A DNA stretch of 64,000 nucleotides from a bacterium. Lineage in GTDB: Bacteria > Babelota > Babeliae > Babelales > GCA-2401785. Each line of letters begins with the position of its first letter. Position 1 is the stretch's first letter. This document shows positions 1 through 64,000 of this stretch, one piece after another. Below the pieces are notes generated by a model, which did no database searches, was not told the origin of the DNA, and saw only the letters and a list, made by a program, of their open reading frames with translations. The position numbers and the translations under genes were made by a program. The stretch lies in NCBI GenBank assembly GCA_023249975.1, contig JAHFBP010000007.1, positions 12,198 to 76,197 of the forward strand, in the 5' to 3' direction.

Positions 1-3000
1 AGCAATTTTTGTAAAAGTTTCATTGAGCTTGCAGCTTGATCATCATCGTGTACATCACTTCTAGAGTAATATTTAAGACAGGAAATCGCAAATGCAGGGC
101 CCTTCTCAGAGCGTTCAGCATATTCGAAAAGCATACTAGCTAGATCCACATAAGATTTTTTATTCCTTACATATTTTTCTGACATCACAAAATCAATCGC
201 CTCTTCAATATATTGTTGTTTTTGTACCAAGGCAGGGAATACGCTTATTGATATAGGTCCATATGTATCCGGATTGCCTTTTTCAATAATGTCTTTTACA
301 ATTTCATAGGCTTCTGTAAAAAACATTCCTTTTTTAACTAATTCAGACATAAGAAAAATACCCTTTTGCGCTATTACAGTCTCTGTAGACTTTACTGCAG
401 TTTGTGCAGCACTTAAAGCCTCCTTAAAAAATTGATCGTTTTTTACCAACTCCTCAAACCACTTGAGACCCTGAAAAGGGTTTGCAGTCATGTATTTTTG
501 GGCAACTTTCCAAATAACCCCAAACCCTTGTTTTTTTAACAACAATTGATCAATCAAGTTGCCTCCCAATTGCTTCACCCTTGCAATGCTACAATCAAGT
601 GCCTCCTGAGCAACCAGAGCAACTTCATTAAAATACAATGACTCATCTGGTTGCAAACTTGGTAAAAACATTTCTTGGTATACTTTGGGTTTTAATAATT
701 TCGATTGCATACGATCTGGTTGTTTTTCTGTAAGTCGCAATAAAAGATCCTTAATAGCAACTCTCATTGCAAGTGAAAAACCTTGGGTCCTAAAATCACT
801 TAGTCTGTTATTAATCATCTCATTGACGATATCTGGATTGTCAATCGGCAATGCAAAGAAATGTGCATATAAAAGACTTAACTTGTTCCTCAAATAATCC
901 ACAGGCTTTTTGTTAAGTTGATATAATCTTTGTGCAAGTAAAAAACTCAACGAATAGGGCACTACGAAATCAATTTTACGTTCTTGCAAAATGTCGTTAA
1001 GTTTTGCATCTTCGGCACTGCCAGATGCGTTAATTAACTTCAGTTGACCGTGCCCTGGACGAGTTGAAAATTGACATTCAATATTCGCCATAGCAACGTT
1101 AATGTTGCTATCAATACACATTGTATCATCAAAAATGATACCTTTTTCTTGCTCTTTATCCGCAGAAAGACTCCCCTTCGCACCTAATTTTTCACACAAT
1201 TTTGGAAAATATTTATTAATAAAATCAGGCAGCATGAATTCTTTTGCTAATCCGCCTTCACTCTCATCAAAAAGATTCAAATTAAGAATGTGACTGAGAA
1301 TAATAATCAGATTTTTTGTTCCAGCTTTAACTTCACAACCTTTTGCGTCAGGCTCAATAATTTTATATTTTTGTGCATCACAAAAAGCATCTAAATCTGT
1401 ATTACTATCTAAATCTTTGGTTGTAATTTTAATACATAAACAATCTTCAGTAGCTCTATCATCAGAAACAATGTGTTTATAAACAACATACGGAATATCA
1501 GAAACAACATGCAGCCACTCAGAATGAGCATCTGCAGTGTCTGCATCGCCAATTATTTTAAATCTTTGTAAAAAGCTTTTTACTGCTTCATGCACACTAG
1601 TTAGACCAAAATTAGTTTGTAATTTTTCGGAATTATACTGATTTGCTTCAGAATCATATGCAAATAAATTAATAAAATTCCGGATAGAGTTATCCATACA
1701 ATCGGGAAATTGACAATATTTATTCGGCTGACTATTGCCTGCATAATAATACTTTGAAAATAAAAATCCCACTGGTGCTGGAAATCCACGAATTTGCTCG
1801 TAGTTAAACATAAAGTCTTCATAATTATCACTGATGCTTTGCGTAACAGCCCCGAATTCTGTTGGCGCTAAAATTCTTTCAATTTCAGCAATGGCTTCTG
1901 ATTGTGTAACCGGTTCAAAAGACTCAATGTCCTCAGGCAACTGAACGCTCAATGCCTCATAATAGGCTTTAATTGCATTCAGATCTTCACCACATTTTTT
2001 CCACACAAATGCCTGAAAAATTAGTTGTACCATATATCCTGGATAAAGTGCGTCAGGATTTAATGGATCGCATTCACGCAATGCTTTTATTATTAATTCA
2101 TCAAATTGTATATTTTCTTTAACTACTGAACTTTTAAAAAGTTTCTTTAATTCTTTAGAAATTAAACTTGGTATTTTAAAAAACCTATAGACTTGAAAAA
2201 TGTCGGCAGAAATTCCTTCTTTATTACTCTTTTTTTCAACTACCGATATAAAACCAGCTCCATTATTTTCAAACATACTATCAATCCGCAAAAAAATACG
2301 CGCTAATTCATTTTTCTTATTAATTAATTCAGATTTTTTTTGTTCATGATCTACTCTTAAAGTCATAAATTCATTACACAATGCAAGCAACGTTCCCACA
2401 ATACCTGCGATAGCTAAATCGCTACGTGATTCAAGTTGTTTAGTTACCCCAAAATCAGCTTCTGTGGTCGACCCAGGAATACGATAAAATAATAGGTGAA
2501 TCAATTTAATAACGGCATGTGTTTTTTCAGAATTATTATATCGAGCAATTGTAGTACGAGCATTTTCACCCTCACCTTTAGTTTCATATTCTGGAAAAAT
2601 TTGACCAAAATCGTACATTCGGCGAATAATCCCAGATTTCCAAGCAATTTCTCCATGTACCAAAGCTAAATGACGATGTTCGGAATTGAGCTTCGCATAA
2701 ATTCCCTTGTTGGCATTCAAAGGCAACGGAATTTCATCGGCTACTTCGGCTACTGGAGTTTTTTCTGTAACTAATTCTCTCTCTTCTGGAACTTCGGCCA
2801 TATCTATTGGTTCTGTAACTAATTCTCTCTCTTCTGGAACTTCGGCCATATCTATTGGTAATGCATCTGGCTTGCCTGGTTTTTTTGGTAAAGCTCCTGC
2901 CCGACGTAAATATTCTGCCCCCAGTCCAGCAGCGACAACAGCTGTAGCTATTGATTTACGTGGGTTCGCCTTAACATATTTCAGACTTTTTTTGGCAAGC

Positions 3001-3149
3001 CCTTGTGGCTCATCTTCTGAGACAGCACCAGAAGCATGTTCCTTCTCTGGGGCTGTTTCAGAAGCCAAAATATTTGCGTCTAATGAAATGCCTGATATCA
3101 ACAATGAAATTGTAAAAATACGAAAGATAATTATTACTTCTTTTATCAT
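1..3149 (-). CDS. Large predicted secreted protein (>1049 aa, 3' end beyond window) with N-terminal signal/anchor and C-terminal helical repeats
   Basis: ATG at 3149 translates as MIKEVIIIFRIFTISLLISGISLDA...QGLAKKSLKYVKANPRKSIATAVVAAGLGAEYLRR...FPDCMDNSIRNFINLFAYD. It is absent from the ORF track, as expected if no in-frame stop occurs before the window edge. Confidence 0.85.
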   Translation of the reverse strand, partial: MIKEVIIIFRIFTISLLISGISLDANILASETAPEKEHASGAVSEDEPQGLAKKSLKYVKANPRKSIATAVVAAGLGAEYLRRAGALPKKPGKPDALPIDMAEVPEERELVTEPIDMAEVPEERELVTEKTPVAEVADEIPLPLNANKGIYAKLNSEHRHLALVHGEIAWKSGIIRRMYDFGQIFPEYETKGEGENARTTIARYNNSEKTHAVIKLIHLLFYRIPGSTTEADFGVTKQLESRSDLAIAGIVGTLLALCNEFMTLRVDHEQKKSELINKKNELARIFLRIDSMFENNGAGFISVVEKKSNKEGISADIFQVYRFFKIPSLISKELKKLFKSSVVKENIQFDELIIKALRECDPLNPDALYPGYMVQLIFQAFVWKKCGEDLNAIKAYYEALSVQLPEDIESFEPVTQSEAIAEIERILAPTEFGAVTQSISDNYEDFMFNYEQIRGFPAPVGFLFSKYYYAGNSQPNKYCQFPDCMDNSIRNFINLFAYDSEANQYNSEKLQTNFGLTSVHEAVKSFLQRFKIIGDADTADAHSEWLHVVSDIPYVVYKHIVSDDRATEDCLCIKITTKDLDSNTDLDAFCDAQKYKIIEPDAKGCEVKAGTKNLIIILSHILNLNLFDESEGGLAKEFMLPDFINKYFPKLCEKLGAKGSLSADKEQEKGIIFDDTMCIDSNINVAMANIECQFSTRPGHGQLKLINASGSAEDAKLNDILQERKIDFVVPYSLSFLLAQRLYQLNKKPVDYLRNKLSLLYAHFFALPIDNPDIVNEMINNRLSDFRTQGFSLAMRVAIKDLLLRLTEKQPDRMQSKLLKPKVYQEMFLPSLQPDESLYFNEVALVAQEALDCSIARVKQLGGNLIDQLLLKKQGFGVIWKVAQKYMTANPFQGLKWFEELVKNDQFFKEALSAAQTAVKSTETVIAQKGIFLMSELVKKGMFFTEAYEIVKDIIEKGNPDTYGPISISVFPALVQKQQYIEEAIDFVMSEKYVRNKKSYVDLASMLFEYAERSEKGPAFAISCLKYYSRSDVHDDDQAASSMKLLQKL
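2763..2858. repeat. Perfect 48-bp tandem duplication (2 copies) encoding PIDMAEVPEERELVTE x2
   Basis: 2763-2810 and 2811-2858 are identical; in frame within the minus-strand CDS. Confidence 0.9.
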
Positions 3150-57726: not shown

Positions 57727-58118
57727 TCAAACAGTCCCCGGCCGCTTCCTTTTTGATAAGGAGCGGAAGTTAGAGAGTAAAACAAATAAAACGACATTGG
57801 GTCACGATAGTACAAACGGTCAAACAATTGACAATCAGTATGACGCGCTCCCAACTTGGGAGTGTACCAGAGAATAGACTTTTAGCAAATTTTGGCCCCA
57901 AAAACGCCTGAATCAATCCATTCAAACCGTGAATATTCCAACCATGATCACCAAAACCTTCCGTAAAGATACAAGCAAAAGAGCAACCACAGCACCTTGT
58001 GGTATTTGCCTACTCGGAAATCAACACAGAAATACTCGGAAGGCAAAACACTTCCGAGTTCCCTAAAAAAGAGTCGGCTTGCCAAAAACTGGCTCAAGTT
58101 TGCCAAAACTCCAATCTC

Positions 58119-58148
58119 TTGAAATCCAAACCCTAATCTTGCTATATT
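58119..58148 (+). promoter_or_regulatory. Conserved cassette promoter (TTGAA[A/G]-18 bp-TATATT, extended -10), present before all five cassettes
   Basis: AATCTCTTGAA...CTTG[C/T]TATATTTCAAATAGAATT repeated at about 58113, 60549, 61489, 62386 and 63258. Confidence 0.65.
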
Positions 58149-58164
58149 TCAAATAGAATTATGC

Positions 58165-58212
58165 GAGATGTCTCAAAAAAGAGATGTCTCAAAAAAGAGA
58201 TGTCTCAAAAAA
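58165..58212 (+). repeat. 16-bp tandem repeat x3 (GAGATGTCTCAAAAAA)
   Basis: Directly visible. Confidence 0.95.
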
Positions 58213-58228
58213 GAGATGGAGATATCTC

Positions 58229-58879
58229 GTGAAGAACCTCAAAATACATCTTTTTGGTGCCGCAACCCTTCTTGGCATGATGCTGCTGACATCGGGAATC
58301 AATGCAGGAGATGGTGCGCCTGAATCCGAAGACATTGCAAGTACTGAACCCTCACAAAACTTCATGCAACGCGGCTGGGAAATGGCCAAGCGAAATCCTC
58401 GCAGGGCGGCAGTGGCCGGTCTTGGCGCTGTGGGTGCTGGATTGGCAGCACGAAGATATATGCAAAACCTAAACATAACCCAAAATCATTTCAATACCAT
58501 TGAAATGGTTATCCAACAACTCGAGGCAGAAATTAATGCTTTGAATGCGATAATACCCCATAATCCTCAATTTGATATTTTTTATAGAGAATGGACTACC
58601 GCGACTGAAGAACCTGACAGAAAAGGCTGGCGTATTCCGACAGAAAATCCGAAGCTAAAGGGTATTATAATAAATATCAAAGATACACTTGAAAATCTTA
58701 AACTGAAGCTGGAAGAATCAATTCTGGGACCTTTACATACTGAATCGGGCATGAATCCAGGTCAACAGCCAAGTCATGCAGGAAGATTTGGTAAAATTAT
58801 AAGCGCTCCATTCAGAGCGATTCATGGAAAATACCAAAACTGGCGCAAACCTCAACGAAACCCAGTGCTTGACGAATAA
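58229..58879 (+). CDS. Cassette 1: secreted protein with conserved N-terminus and variable C-terminus
   Basis: GGAG RBS plus GTG; signal peptide; QRGWEMAKRNP..GLGAVGAGLAARRYMQ. Confidence 0.8.
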   Translation: MKNLKIHLFGAATLLGMMLLTSGINAGDGAPESEDIASTEPSQNFMQRGWEMAKRNPRRAAVAGLGAVGAGLAARRYMQNLNITQNHFNTIEMVIQQLEAEINALNAIIPHNPQFDIFYREWTTATEEPDRKGWRIPTENPKLKGIIINIKDTLENLKLKLEESILGPLHTESGMNPGQQPSHAGRFGKIISAPFRAIHGKYQNWRKPQRNPVLDE

Positions 58880-58885
58880 GAATTA

Positions 58886-58950
58886 TAATCAAAATAACAC
58901 TCCGAACTATTCAAAAGAGGCGGATGTCATTTGTGCATCCGCCTCTTTCT
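58886..58950 (+). terminator. Shared cassette 3' module with terminator (also at 61311 and 63116)
   Basis: TAATCAAAATAACACTCCGAACTATTCAAAAGAGGCGGA...TCCGCCT plus T tract. Confidence 0.8.
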
Positions 58951-59019
58951 GTTTAAATCTAGAAAAACTACTCAGAATCCTGTTCAGTTTCCCTTTTCTG
59001 ACGTATTTTGATTACCAAA

Positions 59020-60390
59020 TTAATTTTCAGATAAGCCCTTAATCAATACAAAAACAGCATGTGGATCTTTTGAAGATGTGGCTATTTTATAAAGTAGCCG
59101 TCCCTCAAGCATGCGCTTTAATCTATTGCTCGCAGTTCGCGTTGTAACCGCCCAGACCTCAGCAGCATTTTTGGTACTCACTTGGCCATTCTTTTTCAAG
59201 TAAGTAATCATAACGTACTCCCATGACGTAAGATTTGGAGCTACACTACGCACTTTTGTCGCATATAATGTAACCCTGAATTGATTGTTAAGCTCCTGGA
59301 ACCAAGGCGCCATAAGCCCCTGTTGCTCACAAGCATCCTGAATCCTCTTCAGTCCAGACCCCCAACGCTCTATAAACTTCAATTCACGCAACACGCGTCC
59401 GATTACCCGATTTCTCAGCCTAGATGAACCCGCCAGAGCATTTTCGAGCGTCATACCAAAATGCAATCCCCCTGGATTGGTAATTTCAATGCGATCATCA
59501 AAAATAGCCACCGATATAGAAGCGCCTTTCATCTCATAATCAGCATGAAGAATTGCATTTATCACCGCTTCTCGCACGGCAACGGGTGGATATTGGGGAA
59601 TGTCAACGCGTTTCATTCTTCCAATGGTCGAACTTACCTTGGTGTGCTGCTCAATGAAGGTAATAACTTTTTCTATCATCAAAGGCATATGAGCCCTGAT
59701 ATCTACTTGATCAAGGAATTTAACTTTATTAATGCCTGAAAATTGTGCGCATTGTACGATTGCATCTGGATACCGTAACGTTTTTTCGGCACCAAACAAA
59801 AGAACTCCTCCGGATGTTGGATATATCTTGCCCGATTGTTCCACAAGCATCCCGAGCATTTGACTTTTCTGGTCTGAGATTTCTTTATTAACTTTTTTAA
59901 ACTCATCCTTAATTACAGACCAGTCAAGCCACTCCCTTGAACCATGAAGATAAGGAGCCTCGTCCGATGATTTATTATTTGCAAACAAACGCAATCGATG
60001 CAATGTTTCTGTATCTGCTATGCGCTTGGTAGACCCAAGCCGTACATAGACACCTTTTTCTGGACCAGCTGATTTGAGATAATAGGGTCCAACAGCGTGA
60101 TAAACATGAATAATGATAATTTCTTTATTGCGCAAGGTTTGAATTTCAATATCTGGCATAATTGAAGGAACTATAGAATCGGCAATTGCGCAAGCAAGCC
60201 GCTCTTCTTCCTTGAGAACATCAGCAACTCCCACAACCTCTTTAGTTGCATCTTTTACACCAATAACAATGGTGCCTCCAGCTGTATTTGCAAAAGCCAC
60301 AATAGTTTTTATGATTCCATCGAGCGAAATAAGATTTTCCTTAAATTCAAGGGCCTTGCCTTCGTTTTGAACTAAAAGCTCTTCTAACAT
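59020..60390 (-). CDS. AlbA_2/Schlafen-like DNA-binding + HATPase_c_4 + wHTH protein (often annotated RecG-like)
   Basis: LEFKE, AFANTAGG.IVIGV.D, REAVINAILHADY, I.NPGG, RN..I...L.ELKFIE.WGSG. Confidence 0.88.
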   Translation of the reverse strand: MLEELLVQNEGKALEFKENLISLDGIIKTIVAFANTAGGTIVIGVKDATKEVVGVADVLKEEERLACAIADSIVPSIMPDIEIQTLRNKEIIIIHVYHAVGPYYLKSAGPEKGVYVRLGSTKRIADTETLHRLRLFANNKSSDEAPYLHGSREWLDWSVIKDEFKKVNKEISDQKSQMLGMLVEQSGKIYPTSGGVLLFGAEKTLRYPDAIVQCAQFSGINKVKFLDQVDIRAHMPLMIEKVITFIEQHTKVSSTIGRMKRVDIPQYPPVAVREAVINAILHADYEMKGASISVAIFDDRIEITNPGGLHFGMTLENALAGSSRLRNRVIGRVLRELKFIERWGSGLKRIQDACEQQGLMAPWFQELNNQFRVTLYATKVRSVAPNLTSWEYVMITYLKKNGQVSTKNAAEVWAVTTRTASNRLKRMLEGRLLYKIATSSKDPHAVFVLIKGLSEN

Positions 60391-60600
60391 AAATACTCCA
60401 TATAATAGCGGCCCAATGCGCCTTGACGCAAAAGCAAACTGCTTCATACTCGGAAATTAACACAGAAATACTCGGAAGGCAAAACACTTCCGAGTTCCTT
60501 AAAAAAGAGTCGACTTGCCAAAAAACGGCTCAAGTTTACCAAAACCCTAATCTCTTGAAGTCCCAACCCTAATCTTGCTATATTTCAAATAGAATTACGC

Positions 60601-60664
60601 GAGATGTCTCAGAAAAGAGATGTCTCAGAAAAGAGATGTCTCAGAAAAGAGATGTCTCAGAAAA
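60601..60664 (+). repeat. 16-bp tandem repeat x4 (GAGATGTCTCAGAAAA)
   Basis: Directly visible. Confidence 0.95.
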
Positions 60665-60680
60665 GAGATGGAGATATCTC

Positions 60681-61313
60681 GTGAAGAACCTCAAAATACG
60701 TCTTTTTGGCGCCCCTGTCCTTCGAAGCCTTGGCGTAGCAGGATTTGCACTCGCTTGCATGGTATTACTCAGTAATGTAGCTCAAGGCACACTTGAGGGA
60801 TCTGCTCGCAAAAATACCAACGCCCAACAACAAACCCTTGCCCAACGTGGTTGGGAAATGGCCAAGCGAAACCGCAACAATATCGGCGCTCTTGCCGGCG
60901 GAACTGCTGCTGCAACCGGCACTAGTTTTGCAGCACGGAAATATTTGCAAAATCGCCAACAAATACAAAATGAGAAAAACAGAGAACAGAATCTGTTGAT
61001 CAGTCGAATTGATACAATGATTCGAAAATTTAATAGGCTGTTTAACCACATAAATGTTAATTTAAAACCAAGCAAAAAACAGGTAGCTGCTGTAGCTAGT
61101 GCGCTTGACCAAATTGTTGACCTCCGCACTGAAGCTTTCAACATAAGAGACACTATCAATAGTTCAGTACACTCTAGTAAACCAGCACAATTTAGTGAAA
61201 CAGCACCATCAAGTAACAGTGGACCTAGTCGCATAAATTGGGCCTGGAAAGCACTTCGCCACCCTGTATCAACTTATCAATCATGGGGCCACACAGGAAC
61301 AAGCGCAGAATAA
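60681..61313 (+). CDS. Cassette 2: conserved-N/variable-C secreted protein with a 10-aa insert in its signal peptide
   Basis: QRGWEMAKRNR...GTSFAARKYLQ; its TAA stop is the first triplet of the shared 3' module. Confidence 0.8.
   Translation: MKNLKIRLFGAPVLRSLGVAGFALACMVLLSNVAQGTLEGSARKNTNAQQQTLAQRGWEMAKRNRNNIGALAGGTAAATGTSFAARKYLQNRQQIQNEKNREQNLLISRIDTMIRKFNRLFNHINVNLKPSKKQVAAVASALDQIVDLRTEAFNIRDTINSSVHSSKPAQFSETAPSSNSGPSRINWAWKALRHPVSTYQSWGHTGTSAE
60714..60743 (+). mobile_element. 30-bp miniature insertion, in frame (PVLRSLGVAG)
   Basis: CCTGTCC...AGGA, same length and ends as 55194-55223; absent from the four paralogous cassettes. Confidence 0.65.
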
Positions 61314-61540
61314 TCAAAATAACACTCCGAACTATTCAAAAGAGGCGGACACATTTTGTGCATCCGCCTCTTTTGTTTTAAAACTAGCCCTAAGACCGCG
61401 CCCAAGACCCATTCGAATGATCTTGATAAATCAAACGCCCTTTTCACGCCCATCCCTCTTCAAAATGGCTCATTCGGCACAAAAGCCCAATCTCTTGAAG
61501 TCCCAACCCTAATCTTGTTATATTTCAAATAGAATTGCGC

Positions 61541-61604
61541 GAGATGTCTCAGAAAAGAGATGTCTCAGAAAAGAGATGTCTCAGAAAAGAGATGTCTCAG
61601 AAAA
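61541..61604 (+). repeat. 16-bp tandem repeat x4
   Basis: Directly visible. Confidence 0.95.
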
Positions 61605-61620
61605 GAGATGGAAATATCTC

Positions 61621-62196
61621 ATGAAAAGCCTAAAAATAAGTCTTTATGGCACATTAGCACTCGTTTGTATGGTGCTCGTGACACCAGGAGCCAAGGGAAG
61701 CGAAGAAGCACCTGACGTATCTGAAGCTGAGCAAATCGAAAATTCCAAAATCCAACCAAACTTTGCCCGACGTGGCTGGGAAATGGCCAAACGAAACCGT
61801 GGCAGTGTTGGATTTTTGACGGGGGCTGGCATGGGCCTGGTTGTACGAAATAGTTTGCAAAATCCACAAAAAAGATTTCTGACTGTCTCAAAAATGTATG
61901 AGCTGGCCTTTCACTTACTGAATGGATATGCCTTTGATTATGCCAGATGGGATAGCAAAAACACTAATGATAAGAATGTTTATAGGACTGATGAATTGAA
62001 TAATGCGCTAAAGTTGACTGAAGATGCCTTGTCCCCTCAAAGGAATACTTCGTATAATCATAAGACTATTAACAACGCCATCCTGACAATTCAGGAGATC
62101 AGCAATCAGATGTATTATGATAATGTGGCGCTAAAGTCTGCTGTATCGGCAGCCATCGATTGCCTGGACCAGATCAACAACTTCAGGAAGCAGTAG
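61621..62196 (+). CDS. Cassette 3: conserved-N/variable-C secreted protein
   Basis: N-terminal 70 codons near-identical to cassette 4; unrelated C-terminus. Confidence 0.8.
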   Translation: MKSLKISLYGTLALVCMVLVTPGAKGSEEAPDVSEAEQIENSKIQPNFARRGWEMAKRNRGSVGFLTGAGMGLVVRNSLQNPQKRFLTVSKMYELAFHLLNGYAFDYARWDSKNTNDKNVYRTDELNNALKLTEDALSPQRNTSYNHKTINNAILTIQEISNQMYYDNVALKSAVSAAIDCLDQINNFRKQ

Positions 62197-62260
62197 CTTG
62201 TGGCGTAATCGAACGAGAGGGTGAACGACTTAAAATTAATTTAAAGAGTTACAATAGTGA

Positions 62261-62307
62261 CCCTTTGATACATTTTTCTTATGAAAAACACTCAGGGCAT
62301 ACTGGAG
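62261..62307 (+). repeat. REP-like element
   Basis: CCCTTTGATACATTTTTCTTATGAAAAACACTCAGGGCATACTGGAG. Confidence 0.7.
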
Positions 62308-62438
62308 TAAATTCCTAGAAAGTATAGTTGGGCCCATTCCACTTTTTCAAAAATCACGCAATCATCGCAAATTAGACACAAAGCCCAATCTCTTGAAGTC
62401 CCAACCCTAATCTTGTTATATTTCAAATAGAATTACGC

Positions 62439-62454
62439 GAGATGTCTCAAAAAA
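62439..62454 (+). repeat. Single 16-bp unit (GAGATGTCTCAAAAAA)
   Basis: Directly visible. Confidence 0.9.
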
Positions 62455-62470
62455 GAGATGGAAATATCTC

Positions 62471-63118
62471 ATGAAAAGCCTAAAAATAAGTCTTTATGGT
62501 GCATTAGCGCTCGTTTTCATGGTGCTCGTGATACCAGGAGTCAAGGGAAGCGAAGAAGCACCTGAAATGCTTGAAGCTGAGCAAATCGAAAATCCCAAAA
62601 TCCAACCAAACTTTGCCCGACGTGGCTGGGAAATGGCCAAACGAAACCGTGGCAGTGTTGGATTTTTGACGGGGGCTGGCGCTGGGTTTGCCGCACGAAG
62701 ATATTGGCAAGGTCGAAAACCTCAAGTTGGTCGCAACAACATAAATGAAAGAATGGTATATTTAAATACGACAATTGCTGAACTAAATAAACACATTCAA
62801 ACCCTTACAAAGATTATCCCAACCGAGATTGACGTTATCGATGGAAAAAATTATGCCCGTTACATTTACGCAATTAAATCCGTCAAATCTAATCCAGTGC
62901 ACTTTGATTTTGTTGATAGAGGTAGAGACTTAAAGCCCTCACTGGTTGAGATTAAAACCCTACTTATAAAACTTCATGAGGATTGTTTGAGACAGCGCAC
63001 TGCCCTTTTTGCCATCAAAAAAAAGATGGAGTCTAAAAAACCTGGTGTCCTCGGACAAGCTTTGGATTGGACAAAATCGAAATTTAAAAGAAACCCTTCT
63101 CCTCGTCCAGTCGTATAA
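62471..63118 (+). CDS. Cassette 4: conserved-N/variable-C secreted protein
   Basis: RRGWEMAKRNR..GAGAGFAARRYWQ; stop overlaps the shared 3' module. Confidence 0.8.
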   Translation: MKSLKISLYGALALVFMVLVIPGVKGSEEAPEMLEAEQIENPKIQPNFARRGWEMAKRNRGSVGFLTGAGAGFAARRYWQGRKPQVGRNNINERMVYLNTTIAELNKHIQTLTKIIPTEIDVIDGKNYARYIYAIKSVKSNPVHFDFVDRGRDLKPSLVEIKTLLIKLHEDCLRQRTALFAIKKKMESKKPGVLGQALDWTKSKFKRNPSPRPVV

Positions 63119-63309
63119 TCAAAATAACACTCCGAACTATTCAAAAGAGGCGGATGCGCAAAATCGCATCCGCCTTTTTCTGTTTAAATCTAAAAAAAAC
63201 TATTCAGCGTCCTGCTCAGTTTCCCTTTGCTTGTTCCGCATAAATGCAGGAATATCCAATCTCTTGAAGTCCCAAGCCAAACCTTGCTATATTTCAAATA
63301 GAATTATGC

Positions 63310-63372
63310 GAGATGTCTCAAAAAAGAGATGTCTCAAAAAAGAGATGTCTCAAAAAAGAGATGTCTCAGAAA
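63310..63372 (+). repeat. 16-bp tandem repeat x3 plus one 15-bp variant
   Basis: Directly visible. Confidence 0.95.
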
Positions 63373-63388
63373 GAGATGGAGATATCTC

Positions 63389-64000
63389 GTGAAAAGCCTC
63401 AAAATACGTCTTTTTGGCGCCGCAACCCTTCTTGGCATGATGCTGCTGACATCGGGAATCAATGCAGGAGAATACGCGCCTGAATCCGAAGAAATTGAAA
63501 AGGCCGAACCCTCACAAAGCTTCATGCAACGTGGCTGGCAATATGCCAAAAATAATCCTAAAAAAGCCGCGGTCGGACTTGCCGCAGTAACTGGTACTGG
63601 ATTTGCCGCACGAAGATATATGCAAAATCGACCACAATATTTTGACCTCGGGAATTTCGCACCAAGAGTTACACCTGAAGCATTAGAAGCCCAACAGATA
63701 GAGCAAGAGCAAATTTTATGGGATCTATCAATTGGTATAATACATTTGCAAATGGAAGACTTCACGATCTGGGCAAATATGGCACAGAAGAGAATTGACG
63801 AGGGTGAAGGGCTTCATGGCGATGCGGATACAGTGCCTAAGTATAGGACGTATGTCAACAATATCGCGACTACACTGACGACTCTTCAATCTATGAATTC
63901 TAAAACTATTTTAAAAGAGTATCACAAGCTCAATGAGTCATTGAATCTGGTTCCAATAGGTGCGTATAGCGCCGATCAGGGCAATAGAAATGTGAATATG
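63389..64000 (+). CDS. Cassette 5 (partial, runs off window): conserved-N/variable-C secreted protein
   Basis: GTG start; MKSLKIRLFGAATLLGMMLLTSGINA...QRGWQYAKNNPKKAAVGLAAVTGTGFAARRYMQ; N-terminus near-identical to cassette 1; no stop before the window end. Confidence 0.8.
   Translation, partial: MKSLKIRLFGAATLLGMMLLTSGINAGEYAPESEEIEKAEPSQSFMQRGWQYAKNNPKKAAVGLAAVTGTGFAARRYMQNRPQYFDLGNFAPRVTPEALEAQQIEQEQILWDLSIGIIHLQMEDFTIWANMAQKRIDEGEGLHGDADTVPKYRTYVNNIATTLTTLQSMNSKTILKEYHKLNESLNLVPIGAYSADQGNRNVNM

Follow-up and report, generated by a model that had tools for sequence, protein, structure and literature searches.

A tandem array of seven ORFan genes with conserved arms and variable C-terminal domains between rpsA and ftsZ of a Dependentiae/Babeliales-like bacterium

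In polymorphic toxin systems (CdiA-CT, Rhs, and MafB), a conserved N-terminal part is followed by a sharp junction motif and highly variable C-termini, and recombination takes place between copies. Antigenic variation of the msp2/p44, vls, and pilE/pilS type relies on one expressed copy and a reservoir of silent partial copies. Here we describe an array of seven genes (units U1 to U7, numbered in array order), which occupies the interval of roughly 9.6 kb between rpsA and ftsZ of a bacterial genome and in which conserved arms enclose a variable C-terminal domain, the payload. Units U1 to U5 begin inside the stretch of 64,000 nucleotides under analysis (G000:C9:12198-76197; hereafter the window). 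In its logic, the array is nearest to the vpma genes of M. agalactiae and the vsp genes of M. bovis, which, according to PMC2268961, are clustered and possess a conserved 5′ untranslated region (UTR) and signal-peptide region, followed by coding sequence without significant homology.

The array also resembles the lpl cluster of S. aureus (Tsuru and Kobayashi 2008). The tandem genes of this cluster serve in host interaction, and their variable parts are shuffled when copies recombine at a conserved segment. The counterpart of this segment in the array is the block consisting of terminator, intergenic region, promoter, leader, and N-terminal arm (N-arm). Among the phytoplasma SVM-signal effectors (SAP11, SAP54; PF12113), a common N-terminal signal motif heads differing secreted effectors of an intracellular bacterium with a reduced genome (PMC8026896). 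Finally, each vlp gene of M. hyorhinis can be expressed independently, and a slippage-prone tract in the control region sets its expression, as described in PMC2268961.

Our preferred reading, which we regard as fairly probable, is that the seven autonomous genes form a tandem family specific to this lineage, shaped by duplication, homogenization of the arms, and diversifying selection on the payloads, and not a dedicated cassette-swapping system. An earlier inspection of the window sequence (the original prediction) had counted at least five units. These five and their start codons were placed correctly (Table 1); extension past 64 kb and a search of the genome raised the number to seven, with U6 on the same contig (C9) and U7 on the next one (C13). 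All seven units lie on the plus strand. Directly upstream of U1 lies rpsA (encoding S1, minus strand), and U7 is followed on C13 by ftsZ, ftsA, and an ftsQ-like gene, all on the minus strand. Contig C9 terminates within an exact repeat of 121 nt, the longest exact repeat, and its last 44 nt are identical to the first 44 nt of C13; the join is supported by synteny with the closest relative recovered. The genome (1.09 Mb, 20 contigs, 41% GC, 92.8% complete) has its nearest named FtsZ records in metagenome-assembled genomes (MAGs) of Dependentiae/Babeliales. The organism is a Dependentiae/Babeliales-like bacterium and probably lives inside protists.

Each of the five units in the window carries a sigma-70-like promoter-like site (TTGAAG or TTGAAA, a spacer of 18 nt, and a TG-extended −10 element TATATT). 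The promoter core is 77-99% identical among all seven units, even in pairs whose coding N-arms show a synonymous divergence (dS) of about 1. Between the −10 element and the start codon, a 16-nt repeat, GAGATGTCTCA[A/G]AAAA, forms the leader, with one copy in U4, two in U7, three in U1 and U6, and four in U2, U3, and U5 (3.4, 4.4, 4.4, 1, and 4.4 for U1 to U5 when partial copies are included). The element GAGATGGA[G/A]ATATCTC, which contains a Shine-Dalgarno (SD)-like GGAG or GGAA, abuts the start codon in all units, i.e. GTG in U1, U2, and U5-U7 and ATG in U3 and U4. It matched six times on C9, once on C13, and nowhere else in the 20 contigs. Gene callers had placed the start of U6 at an ATG inside the repeats (P0001, 269 aa). 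A translation start at such an ATG was discarded as a general solution, as the in-frame ATG moves with the repeat variants and U4 has none in frame.

At the other end, six of the seven units possess a 3′ module of 30 conserved nt and a GC-rich hairpin of 13-17 bp with a U-tract. This module begins at the stop codon in U2 and U4, 3 nt past it in U5, and 9 nt past it in U1. It is exact in U1, U2, and U4, and its TAA is the stop codon of U2 and U4. For U3, the terminator module was not found; an interpretation of the U3 3′ region as a decayed tail plus terminator was dropped, since no clear homology was seen.

The encoded proteins (191-270 aa) share a conserved order of elements: a signal-peptide-like N-terminus (Kyte-Doolittle 1.9-2.6), an acidic linker (net charge −4 to −6 in six proteins), RGW(EM/QY)AK(R/N)N, a moderately hydrophobic Gly/Ala segment, R(R/K/N)(Y/S)xQ(N/G), and then the payload. 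Residues R48, G49, W50, A53, K54, N56, R75, and Q79 are invariant in all seven, and the boundary between N-arm and payload lies at the same motif, RRYMQN, in every unit. In five units the protein ends in a basic, aromatic-rich tail. In U7, this tail is cut by a TAA where U6 has TAC, and the tail sequence runs on in frame past the stop; U3 likewise stops early. The original prediction had reported the common promoter block, leader, and start-codon element of the five in-window units, the signal peptide, RGW motif, and Gly/Ala stretch, as well as the terminator module of U1, U2, and U4, and all of these were borne out, those of the protein by alignment of all seven sequences. It had further described each unit as independently expressible. 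A promoter-like site for each unit agrees with this, and contigs from RNA libraries were found on U2 and U5.

Scans of the seven units with Pfam, NCBIfam, PADLOC, and PHROG gave no significant match, and the SVM signal PF12113 was absent from Pfam matches at E ≤1. No invariant Cys indicative of a lipobox was present in the seven-protein alignment; a Cys in the h-region occurred only in U2 and U3. AlphaFold2 (AF2) models of U6 and U5 were all-helical at low confidence (mean pLDDT, i.e. predicted local distance difference test, 48.8 and 46.0). In both models, the same order of helices followed the anchor (41-42 residues, about 18-20, about 15, 26-37, and a tail helix), a weak hint at a common scaffold for these two payloads. 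The proteins are probably exported by Sec and are probably membrane-associated and helical.

The family is an ORFan family, i.e. without recognizable relatives elsewhere. A profile search of 1.84 billion (1.84e9) representative proteins returned six matches, all of them the array's own units. None of 40 related genomes matched the family, and collections of genome and metagenome contigs contained no relatives by protein pattern, the metagenome contigs also none by a 32-nt leader pattern. A homology search with U6 returned only proteins of the array genome, and ESM Atlas gave no usable match. When payloads alone were used as queries, U5 had no match and U4 matched only itself.

Some of the payloads are related to each other. 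Those of U3, U6, and U7 are homologous by blastp (U3/U6, 41% over 109 residues, E = 1e-24; U6/U7, 28%, E = 4e-7). A shuffle test (21 pairs, 500 shuffles per pair) gave z = 32.6 for U3/U6, 11.9 for U6/U7, and 3.6 for U3/U7, with z ≤2.2 for the other 18 pairs. In total, the seven units comprise five payload classes. The C-termini had been described originally as mutually unalignable. This holds for the five in-window payloads, among which no pair was significantly similar by blastp or by 500 shuffles per pair, but not for U6 and U7 outside the window, which are homologous to U3. The idea that payloads represent one DNA read in different frames was rejected, as self-blastn detected no DNA similarity between payload classes.

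In all three alignable pairs, payload dS was 0.25-0.45 and the ratio of nonsynonymous to synonymous divergence (dN/dS) was 1.64-2.33 (NG86), 1.76-2.19 (LWL85), or 1.85-7.9 (maximum likelihood). The N-arms of the older pairs displayed a dN/dS of 0.35-0.76. These values point to diversifying selection on the payload domain, which we consider probable as part of the preferred reading as a whole. At the payload rate, the dS of about 1 of the oldest N-arms (U1/U4 and U2/U4) would give about two amino-acid changes per site; payload similarity could therefore be erased without imported foreign cassettes.

Evidence for growth of the array in place comes from ftsZ. The genuine 3′ end of this gene lies, on the minus strand, behind the terminator of U7, and copies of the same end are found behind U4 and, in a shorter form, behind U1 (Table 1). 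These copies are scars left when a unit and the adjoining gene end were duplicated as one segment, and they document growth of the array by segmental duplication in situ. In the closest relative recovered (FtsZ 74% and S1 71% identity), only a Cu-oxidase_4 (YfiH/PgeF-type) gene lies between ftsZ and rpsA (L013:4324-5025); we therefore regard the array as lineage-specific growth at the rpsA-ftsZ site. The Cu-oxidase_4 gene of the relative had no tblastn match anywhere in the array genome at its 92.8% completeness.

The region downstream of ftsZ was also inspected in five other Dependentiae/Babeliales MAGs. Four of them (L014, L015, L016, and L021) have unrelated, lineage-specific open reading frames (ORFs) of 211-827 aa with signal-peptide-like starts at this place; in L017, the single large neighbor lacks such a start. 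In none of the five was rpsA found within 3 kb downstream of ftsZ. The site downstream of ftsZ may be a recurrent home of variable exported proteins.

Different parts of the units have different histories. N-arm identity is 77% for U1 and U5, 81% for U3 and U4, and about 40% between U2 and all others, in agreement with the mosaic N-termini of the original prediction. The N-arm DNA tree grouped U3 with U4 (support 100/99) and placed the others as (U1,(U5,(U6,U7))). Payloads group U3, U6, and U7; forcing this grouping on the N-arm tree cost 136.8 log-likelihood units and was rejected by the approximately unbiased (AU) test (p = 2.2e-5), in line with the earlier suggestion of mosaic units with recombination in the arms. 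Incongruence between modules, a mark of lpl-like tandem clusters that evolve by recombination at conserved segments, is found here as well. A third partition, incongruent with both groupings, is given by the 3′ flanks, which are of the ftsZ-tail type after U1, U4, and U7 and of a 190-nt type after U2, U5, and U6, with neither after U3.

The same pattern was seen in synonymous divergence. N-arm dS is 0.04-0.14 within converted groups and 0.7-1.1 between them. For U3/U6, dS is 0.73 in the N-arm vs. 0.25-0.28 in the payload, and for U6/U7 it is 0.04 in the N-arm vs. 0.29-0.30 in the payload. U5 and U6 differ little in the N-arm (dS 0.056) and in 194 nt of the intergenic region downstream (95.9% identity), but their payloads are without similarity. 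The DNA identity profile of this pair runs at 90-99% to about codon 80, drops to about 45-55% (the noise to be expected when a global alignment is forced), and is back at 99% in the terminator, which confirms the abrupt loss of similarity noted before. Point mutation cannot produce flanks diverged by 5% around a saturated middle, so the arms must have undergone homologous exchange or gene conversion. RecA is encoded in the genome.

On this reading, segmental duplications would have built up the array between rpsA and ftsZ. Homologous recombination of the RecA type (gene conversion or unequal crossing-over) would repeatedly re-homogenize a tract that begins at the terminator of one unit, takes in the intergenic region, promoter, and leader, and reaches codon 80 of the following unit, while the helical C-terminal domain would diversify under selection until most payloads lost recognizable similarity. 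Occasional recombination in the arms would re-pair N-arms with payloads. Pairing of leader-repeat RNA with the start-adjacent element would damp or tune translation.

The original prediction had gone further and proposed a dedicated diversification system, in which unrelated payload domains are exchangeable and the conserved arms exist for swapping, as in polymorphic effector or toxin loci. We consider such a modular cassette system unlikely. It would account for the four payloads (U1, U2, U4, and U5) that resemble no other, for a boundary at RRYMQN in every unit with homology resuming at or within 9 nt of the stop codon in U1, U2, U4, and U5, and for flanks of U5 and U6 that are about 95% identical around unalignable payloads. 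Different classes of payload GC content at third codon positions (GC3), and a probable distant copy of the N-arm module on a 1098-aa ORFan 55 kb away (see below), would also fit. Against it, three of the seven payloads are plainly diverged homologues with graded divergence, the outcome that had been named beforehand as speaking against exchangeable unrelated payloads, and the ftsZ scars record duplication of whole units. A donor pool is likewise lacking: tblastn with the seven proteins against the genome revealed no further, silent, or partial copies and a single weak N-terminal look-alike, and no payload homologue was found outside the genome. As the original prediction had already noted for the window, no machinery accompanies the array. 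No recombinase lies near it (two matches to the tyrosine recombinase family PF00589 are on contigs C19 and C7), no match to the reverse transcriptase PF00078 was detected in the genome, and self-blastn found no payload-internal repeat pair such as the template and variable repeats of a diversity-generating retroelement. Between no stop codon and the next promoter was an immunity-like ORF found; ORFs of at least 50 aa there overlap terminators, promoters, or leaders or lie antisense to coding sequences. With a payload dN/dS of 1.6-2.3, selection would be enough to erase similarity.

Public sequencing runs also bear on swapping. Four runs of one groundwater study contain the locus, two of DNA (X1 and X2) and two metatranscriptomic, all in the form of contigs. 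Contigs of X1 span payload sequence unique to U1, U4, and U5 with an even depth of 12-14 (records 2, 6, and 7), and X2 contains identical pieces of the U5 and U6 payloads. The different payloads between the same arms that the original prediction had led one to expect did not appear: contigs of the two DNA runs showed the same payload pieces and no new combination of arm and payload. An apparent joint in X2 (record 14) was rejected as a strain variant because it is an alignment of U7 to U6. Paralogues aligned to each other also explain the clustered differences at L003 5620-5673 and 7327-7377. RNA-library contigs comprise nearly the whole coding sequence of U2 (X3 record 19 at L003 2868-3498; X4 record 24), some 450 nt of U5, and the beginning of U1 and of U6. 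U3, U4, and the AlbA_2 gene described below had no RNA contig; in contig data, uncovered parts are not evidence. Together, the run contigs agree with a stable array in which U2 and U5, at least, are expressed.

Another explanation, compatible with our preferred reading, is a family of surface proteins with variable phase or expression, in which slippage of the 16-nt repeat alters the translation of each unit. Repeat number does vary among the paralogues (1, 2, 3, 3, 4, 4, and 4), the repeat sits between the −10 element and the start codon, and a conserved 5′ UTR plus signal peptide is the hallmark of the variable vsp/vpma families of mycoplasmas (PMC2268961). The repeat RNA, GAGAUGUCUC, is self-complementary via two G-U pairs, whereas its antisense strand is not. 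In predicted folds, the repeats pair with each other, and the final GAGAUAUCUC element near the start codon pairs with an upstream repeat or with itself. Fold z-scores were −3.6 to −6.5 in six of the seven leaders and −1.55 for the single-repeat leader of U4, but tandem self-complementary repeats fold well by construction. Furthermore, the SD-start region is unpaired with a mean probability of 0.05-0.46, a value that bears no relation to copy number, e.g. 0.05 in U2 vs. 0.44 in U3, both with four copies, and a variant in which the parity of the repeat number frees the start region was dropped for the same reason. CsrA was not found in the genome, and an Rfam scan of the whole window returned one tRNA only, with no match in the leaders. 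Phase variation by slippage thus appears improbable. On the basis of the predicted folds, the leader repeats are probably a translational damper or tuning element; alternatively, they could form a DNA operator array for a repressor.

Slightly less probable still, in our estimation, is a programmed variation system of a kind undescribed in Dependentiae. Such a system would offer seven alternative exported proteins, a slippage-prone number of leader repeats that sets translation, arms that let RecA re-pair export modules and payloads, and an 80-aa export and anchor module that is also used on unrelated proteins such as the 1098-aa ORFan. Our literature searches found no programmed variation system described in Dependentiae.

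An assembly artefact, by which arms and payloads were misjoined or units invented, is very unlikely: the genome is a short-read MAG, C9 ends inside a repeat, and Logan contigs of both DNA runs break at the arms, but no exact repeat exceeds 121 nt, each payload is unique and covered by independent X1 contigs at even depth, the same payload pieces recur in the second DNA sample, U4 and U7 proteins of identical sequence have each been recorded from three contigs, and the flanks are supported by synteny with the relative. Also very unlikely are antibacterial polymorphic toxins or bacteriocins with a common export leader, to which the conserved N-terminus, sharp junction motif, and variable C-terminus might point: no immunity gene follows any of the seven units, no toxin, defence, or phage family matched, the payloads are predicted to be all-helical (low-confidence AF2 models of U5 and U6), and the organism probably lives inside protists.

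Several observations weigh against our preferred reading of duplication, arm homogenization, and diversifying selection, or against parts of it. Common ancestry of the four payloads without detectable similarity (U1, U2, U4, and U5) is not demonstrated, and payload GC3 differs between U1, U2, and U4 (0.29-0.32) and U3, U6, and U7 (0.43-0.49). The dN/dS values above 1 are pairwise estimates only, derived from three gapped alignments of 104-117 codons with 28-41% identity. With Kyte-Doolittle values of 0.9-1.8 over 15 residues, the Gly/Ala segment is borderline as a second hydrophobic segment, and the agreement in helix order between U5 and U6 stems from models with pLDDT 46-49 that were built on one common seven-row alignment. 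Start-region accessibility independent of copy number speaks against leader regulation. RNA-library contigs carry neither strand nor level, and no silent control stretch outside the array accompanies them. Finally, the join of C9 and C13 rests on the 44-nt overlap and synteny, and further units could be hidden there.

Turning to function, we infer that the family consists of exported, perhaps membrane-anchored, host- or surface-facing proteins engaged in an arms race. This reading draws on the host group. Cultured Dependentiae parasitize protists, and in Chromulinavorax signal peptides occur on 44% of coding sequences, a set in which ORFans are enriched and to which an action on the protist host is ascribed (PMC6561590).

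The N-arm module may have a distant copy elsewhere. A 1098-aa ORFan without Pfam match (window 3-3149, minus strand; whole ORF G000:C9:15346-12050), 55 kb from the array, starts with a signal peptide, an acidic linker, K-Y-V-K-A-N-P-R-K, and a Gly/Ala segment. Its head resembles the array module (hmmsearch within the genome, E = 0.0047; hhalign against A1, probability 77%, E = 2e-5) and is a probable distant copy; the 80-aa module may therefore be portable. Two more ORFans without Pfam match combine a signal peptide, an acidic linker, and Gly/Ala-rich hydrophobic segments: (i) a 365-aa protein (G000:C3:49085-47988, minus strand; L028:492-1586) with three internal repeats of about 50-80 aa (GASPELA..LLS..); and (ii) a 389-aa protein (G000:C10:16176-17345, plus strand; L029:2177-3343) with a W/K/R-rich tail that resembles array tails. 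By hhalign (probability 52%) and hmmsearch (E = 0.033 and 1.2), these two show no more than marginal homology to the array.

Between U1 and U2 lies a minus-strand gene of 475 aa, overlooked in the original prediction, whose AlbA_2/HATPase_c_4 product is a putative DNA-binding protein. It has a helix-turn-helix-like C-terminus and diverges from U2 across block A, a 208-nt block upstream of U1 that is repeated upstream of U2 with 93% identity; the gene may regulate the array or be a passenger in it. Both copies of block A contain an identical inverted repeat with a 9-bp stem (ACTCGGAAG, 8 nt, CTTCCGAGT; window 58034-58059 and 60470-60495). These inverted repeats lie upstream of the minus-strand genes rpsA and AlbA_2 and may serve as an operator or in the manner of a terminator. 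In both DNA runs, 45 nt from the 3′ end of the AlbA_2 gene (L003 1200-1244, window 59002-59046) are also part of contigs whose flanks (at least 255 nt on each side) do not match the locus; this piece is common to another context or organism.

Table 1. Coordinates of array features and of the interspersed gene. Positions are those of the window unless a contig is named; CDS, coding sequence.
Feature	Position	Strand	Remarks
Promoter-like site starts	58119 (U1), 60555 (U2), 61495 (U3), 62393 (U4), 63264 (U5)	+	sequence match
Block A	58011-58118	+	upstream of U1; copy at 60447-60654 ahead of U2, 93% identical; found as repeat family
U1 promoter-like site	58119-58148	+	TTGAAA, 18 nt, TG-extended TATATT
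U1 leader	58165-58228	+	3.4 repeats and final GAGATGGAGATATCTC element with SD-like GGAG
U1 CDS	58229-58879	+	216 aa, GTG start; signal peptide, acidic linker, RGWEMAKRN, Gly/Ala segment, unique payload, basic/aromatic tail
U1 3′ module	58885-58962	+	30 nt and GC-rich hairpin terminator; −24.6 kcal/mol, z −5.65
ftsZ-tail copy behind U1	58968-58999	−	about 10 codons and stop; blastn of window 58886-58996 vs. C13:889-1000, 89%
AlbA_2 gene	59020-60447	−	475 aa, between U1 and U2; Schlafen AlbA_2 and HATPase_c_4 (Pfam E 1.4e-25 and 4.1e-28); phrog_12156 E 6e-64
U2 promoter-like site and leader	60555-60680	+	site 60555-60584; 4.4 repeats 60601-60670; from sequence
U2 CDS	60681-61313	+	210 aa; N-arm most divergent of family; payload unique
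U2 3′ module and terminator	61310-61387	+	TAA is U2 stop codon
U3 promoter-like site and leader	61495-61620	+	4.4 repeats
U3 CDS	61621-62196	+	191 aa; no tail, no terminator module; payload homologous to U6, U7
U4 promoter-like site and leader	62393-62470	+	single repeat
U4 CDS	62471-63118	+	215 aa, ATG start; payload unique
U4 3′ module and terminator	63115-63192	+	TAA is U4 stop codon
ftsZ-tail copy behind U4	63200-63259	−	last 19 codons and stop (LDIPAFMRNKQRETEQDAE*); abuts U5 promoter; alignment
U5 promoter-like site and leader	63264-63388	+	4.4 repeats, last copy 15 nt
U5 CDS	63389-64000 and beyond, to window-equivalent 64201	+	270 aa; payload unique
U6 CDS	C9:76689-77453	+	outside window
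U7 CDS	C13:127-729	+	outside window; opens contig C13

Dependentiae are widespread parasites of protists with hardly any cultured members, and little is known of the genes by which they interact with their hosts. With its duplication scars, homogenized arms, and variable domains with dN/dS above 1, the locus is a compact and datable example of how an exported-protein family is invented and diversified in such a genome. It offers seven natural variants of one scaffold for studies of localization and binding, as well as a natural series of leaders with one to four repeats for testing translational control. It also calls for caution, as unalignable cassettes between conserved arms can come from duplication, gene conversion, and positive selection without a dedicated machine.

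The array differs from each of the systems introduced above. The vpma and vsp genes encode lipoproteins, and a neighboring Xer1-type recombinase switches them at 5′ UTR sites, whereas the array has no conserved lipobox Cys, a single orientation with a promoter for each unit, tyrosine recombinases only on other contigs, and a 3′ arm that is conserved as well. In lpl, the conserved segment is central and the gene ends vary, while in the array the variable middle lies between conserved ends; the two are unrelated in sequence, and the array is read from one genome. Unlike the SVM effectors, which are scattered mobile units, the array is a single tandem locus without PF12113 match, and its module spans 80 aa and includes a second hydrophobic segment. 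The vlp tract lies in the −35/−10 spacer, but in the array this spacer is constant at 18 nt in all five in-window units and the 16-nt repeat is located downstream of the −10 element. Polymorphic toxins differ by their immunity genes, promoter-less orphan cassettes, and known trafficking and toxin domains, none of which were seen with the small proteins (191-270 aa) of the array. Expression-site systems differ by their silent cassettes, whereas every array unit has a promoter-like site, a leader, and a start codon, and no partial copies were found in the genome. The array thus lacks the defining features of each compared family, i.e. recombinase and inversion, lipobox, PF12113, immunity genes, or silent cassettes. 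It is a new, sequence-orphan variant of tandem exported-protein families with a conserved 5′ module and a variable mature part: a known pattern, here in a phylum of which little is known, with a leader that is unusual and duplication scars of unusual clarity.

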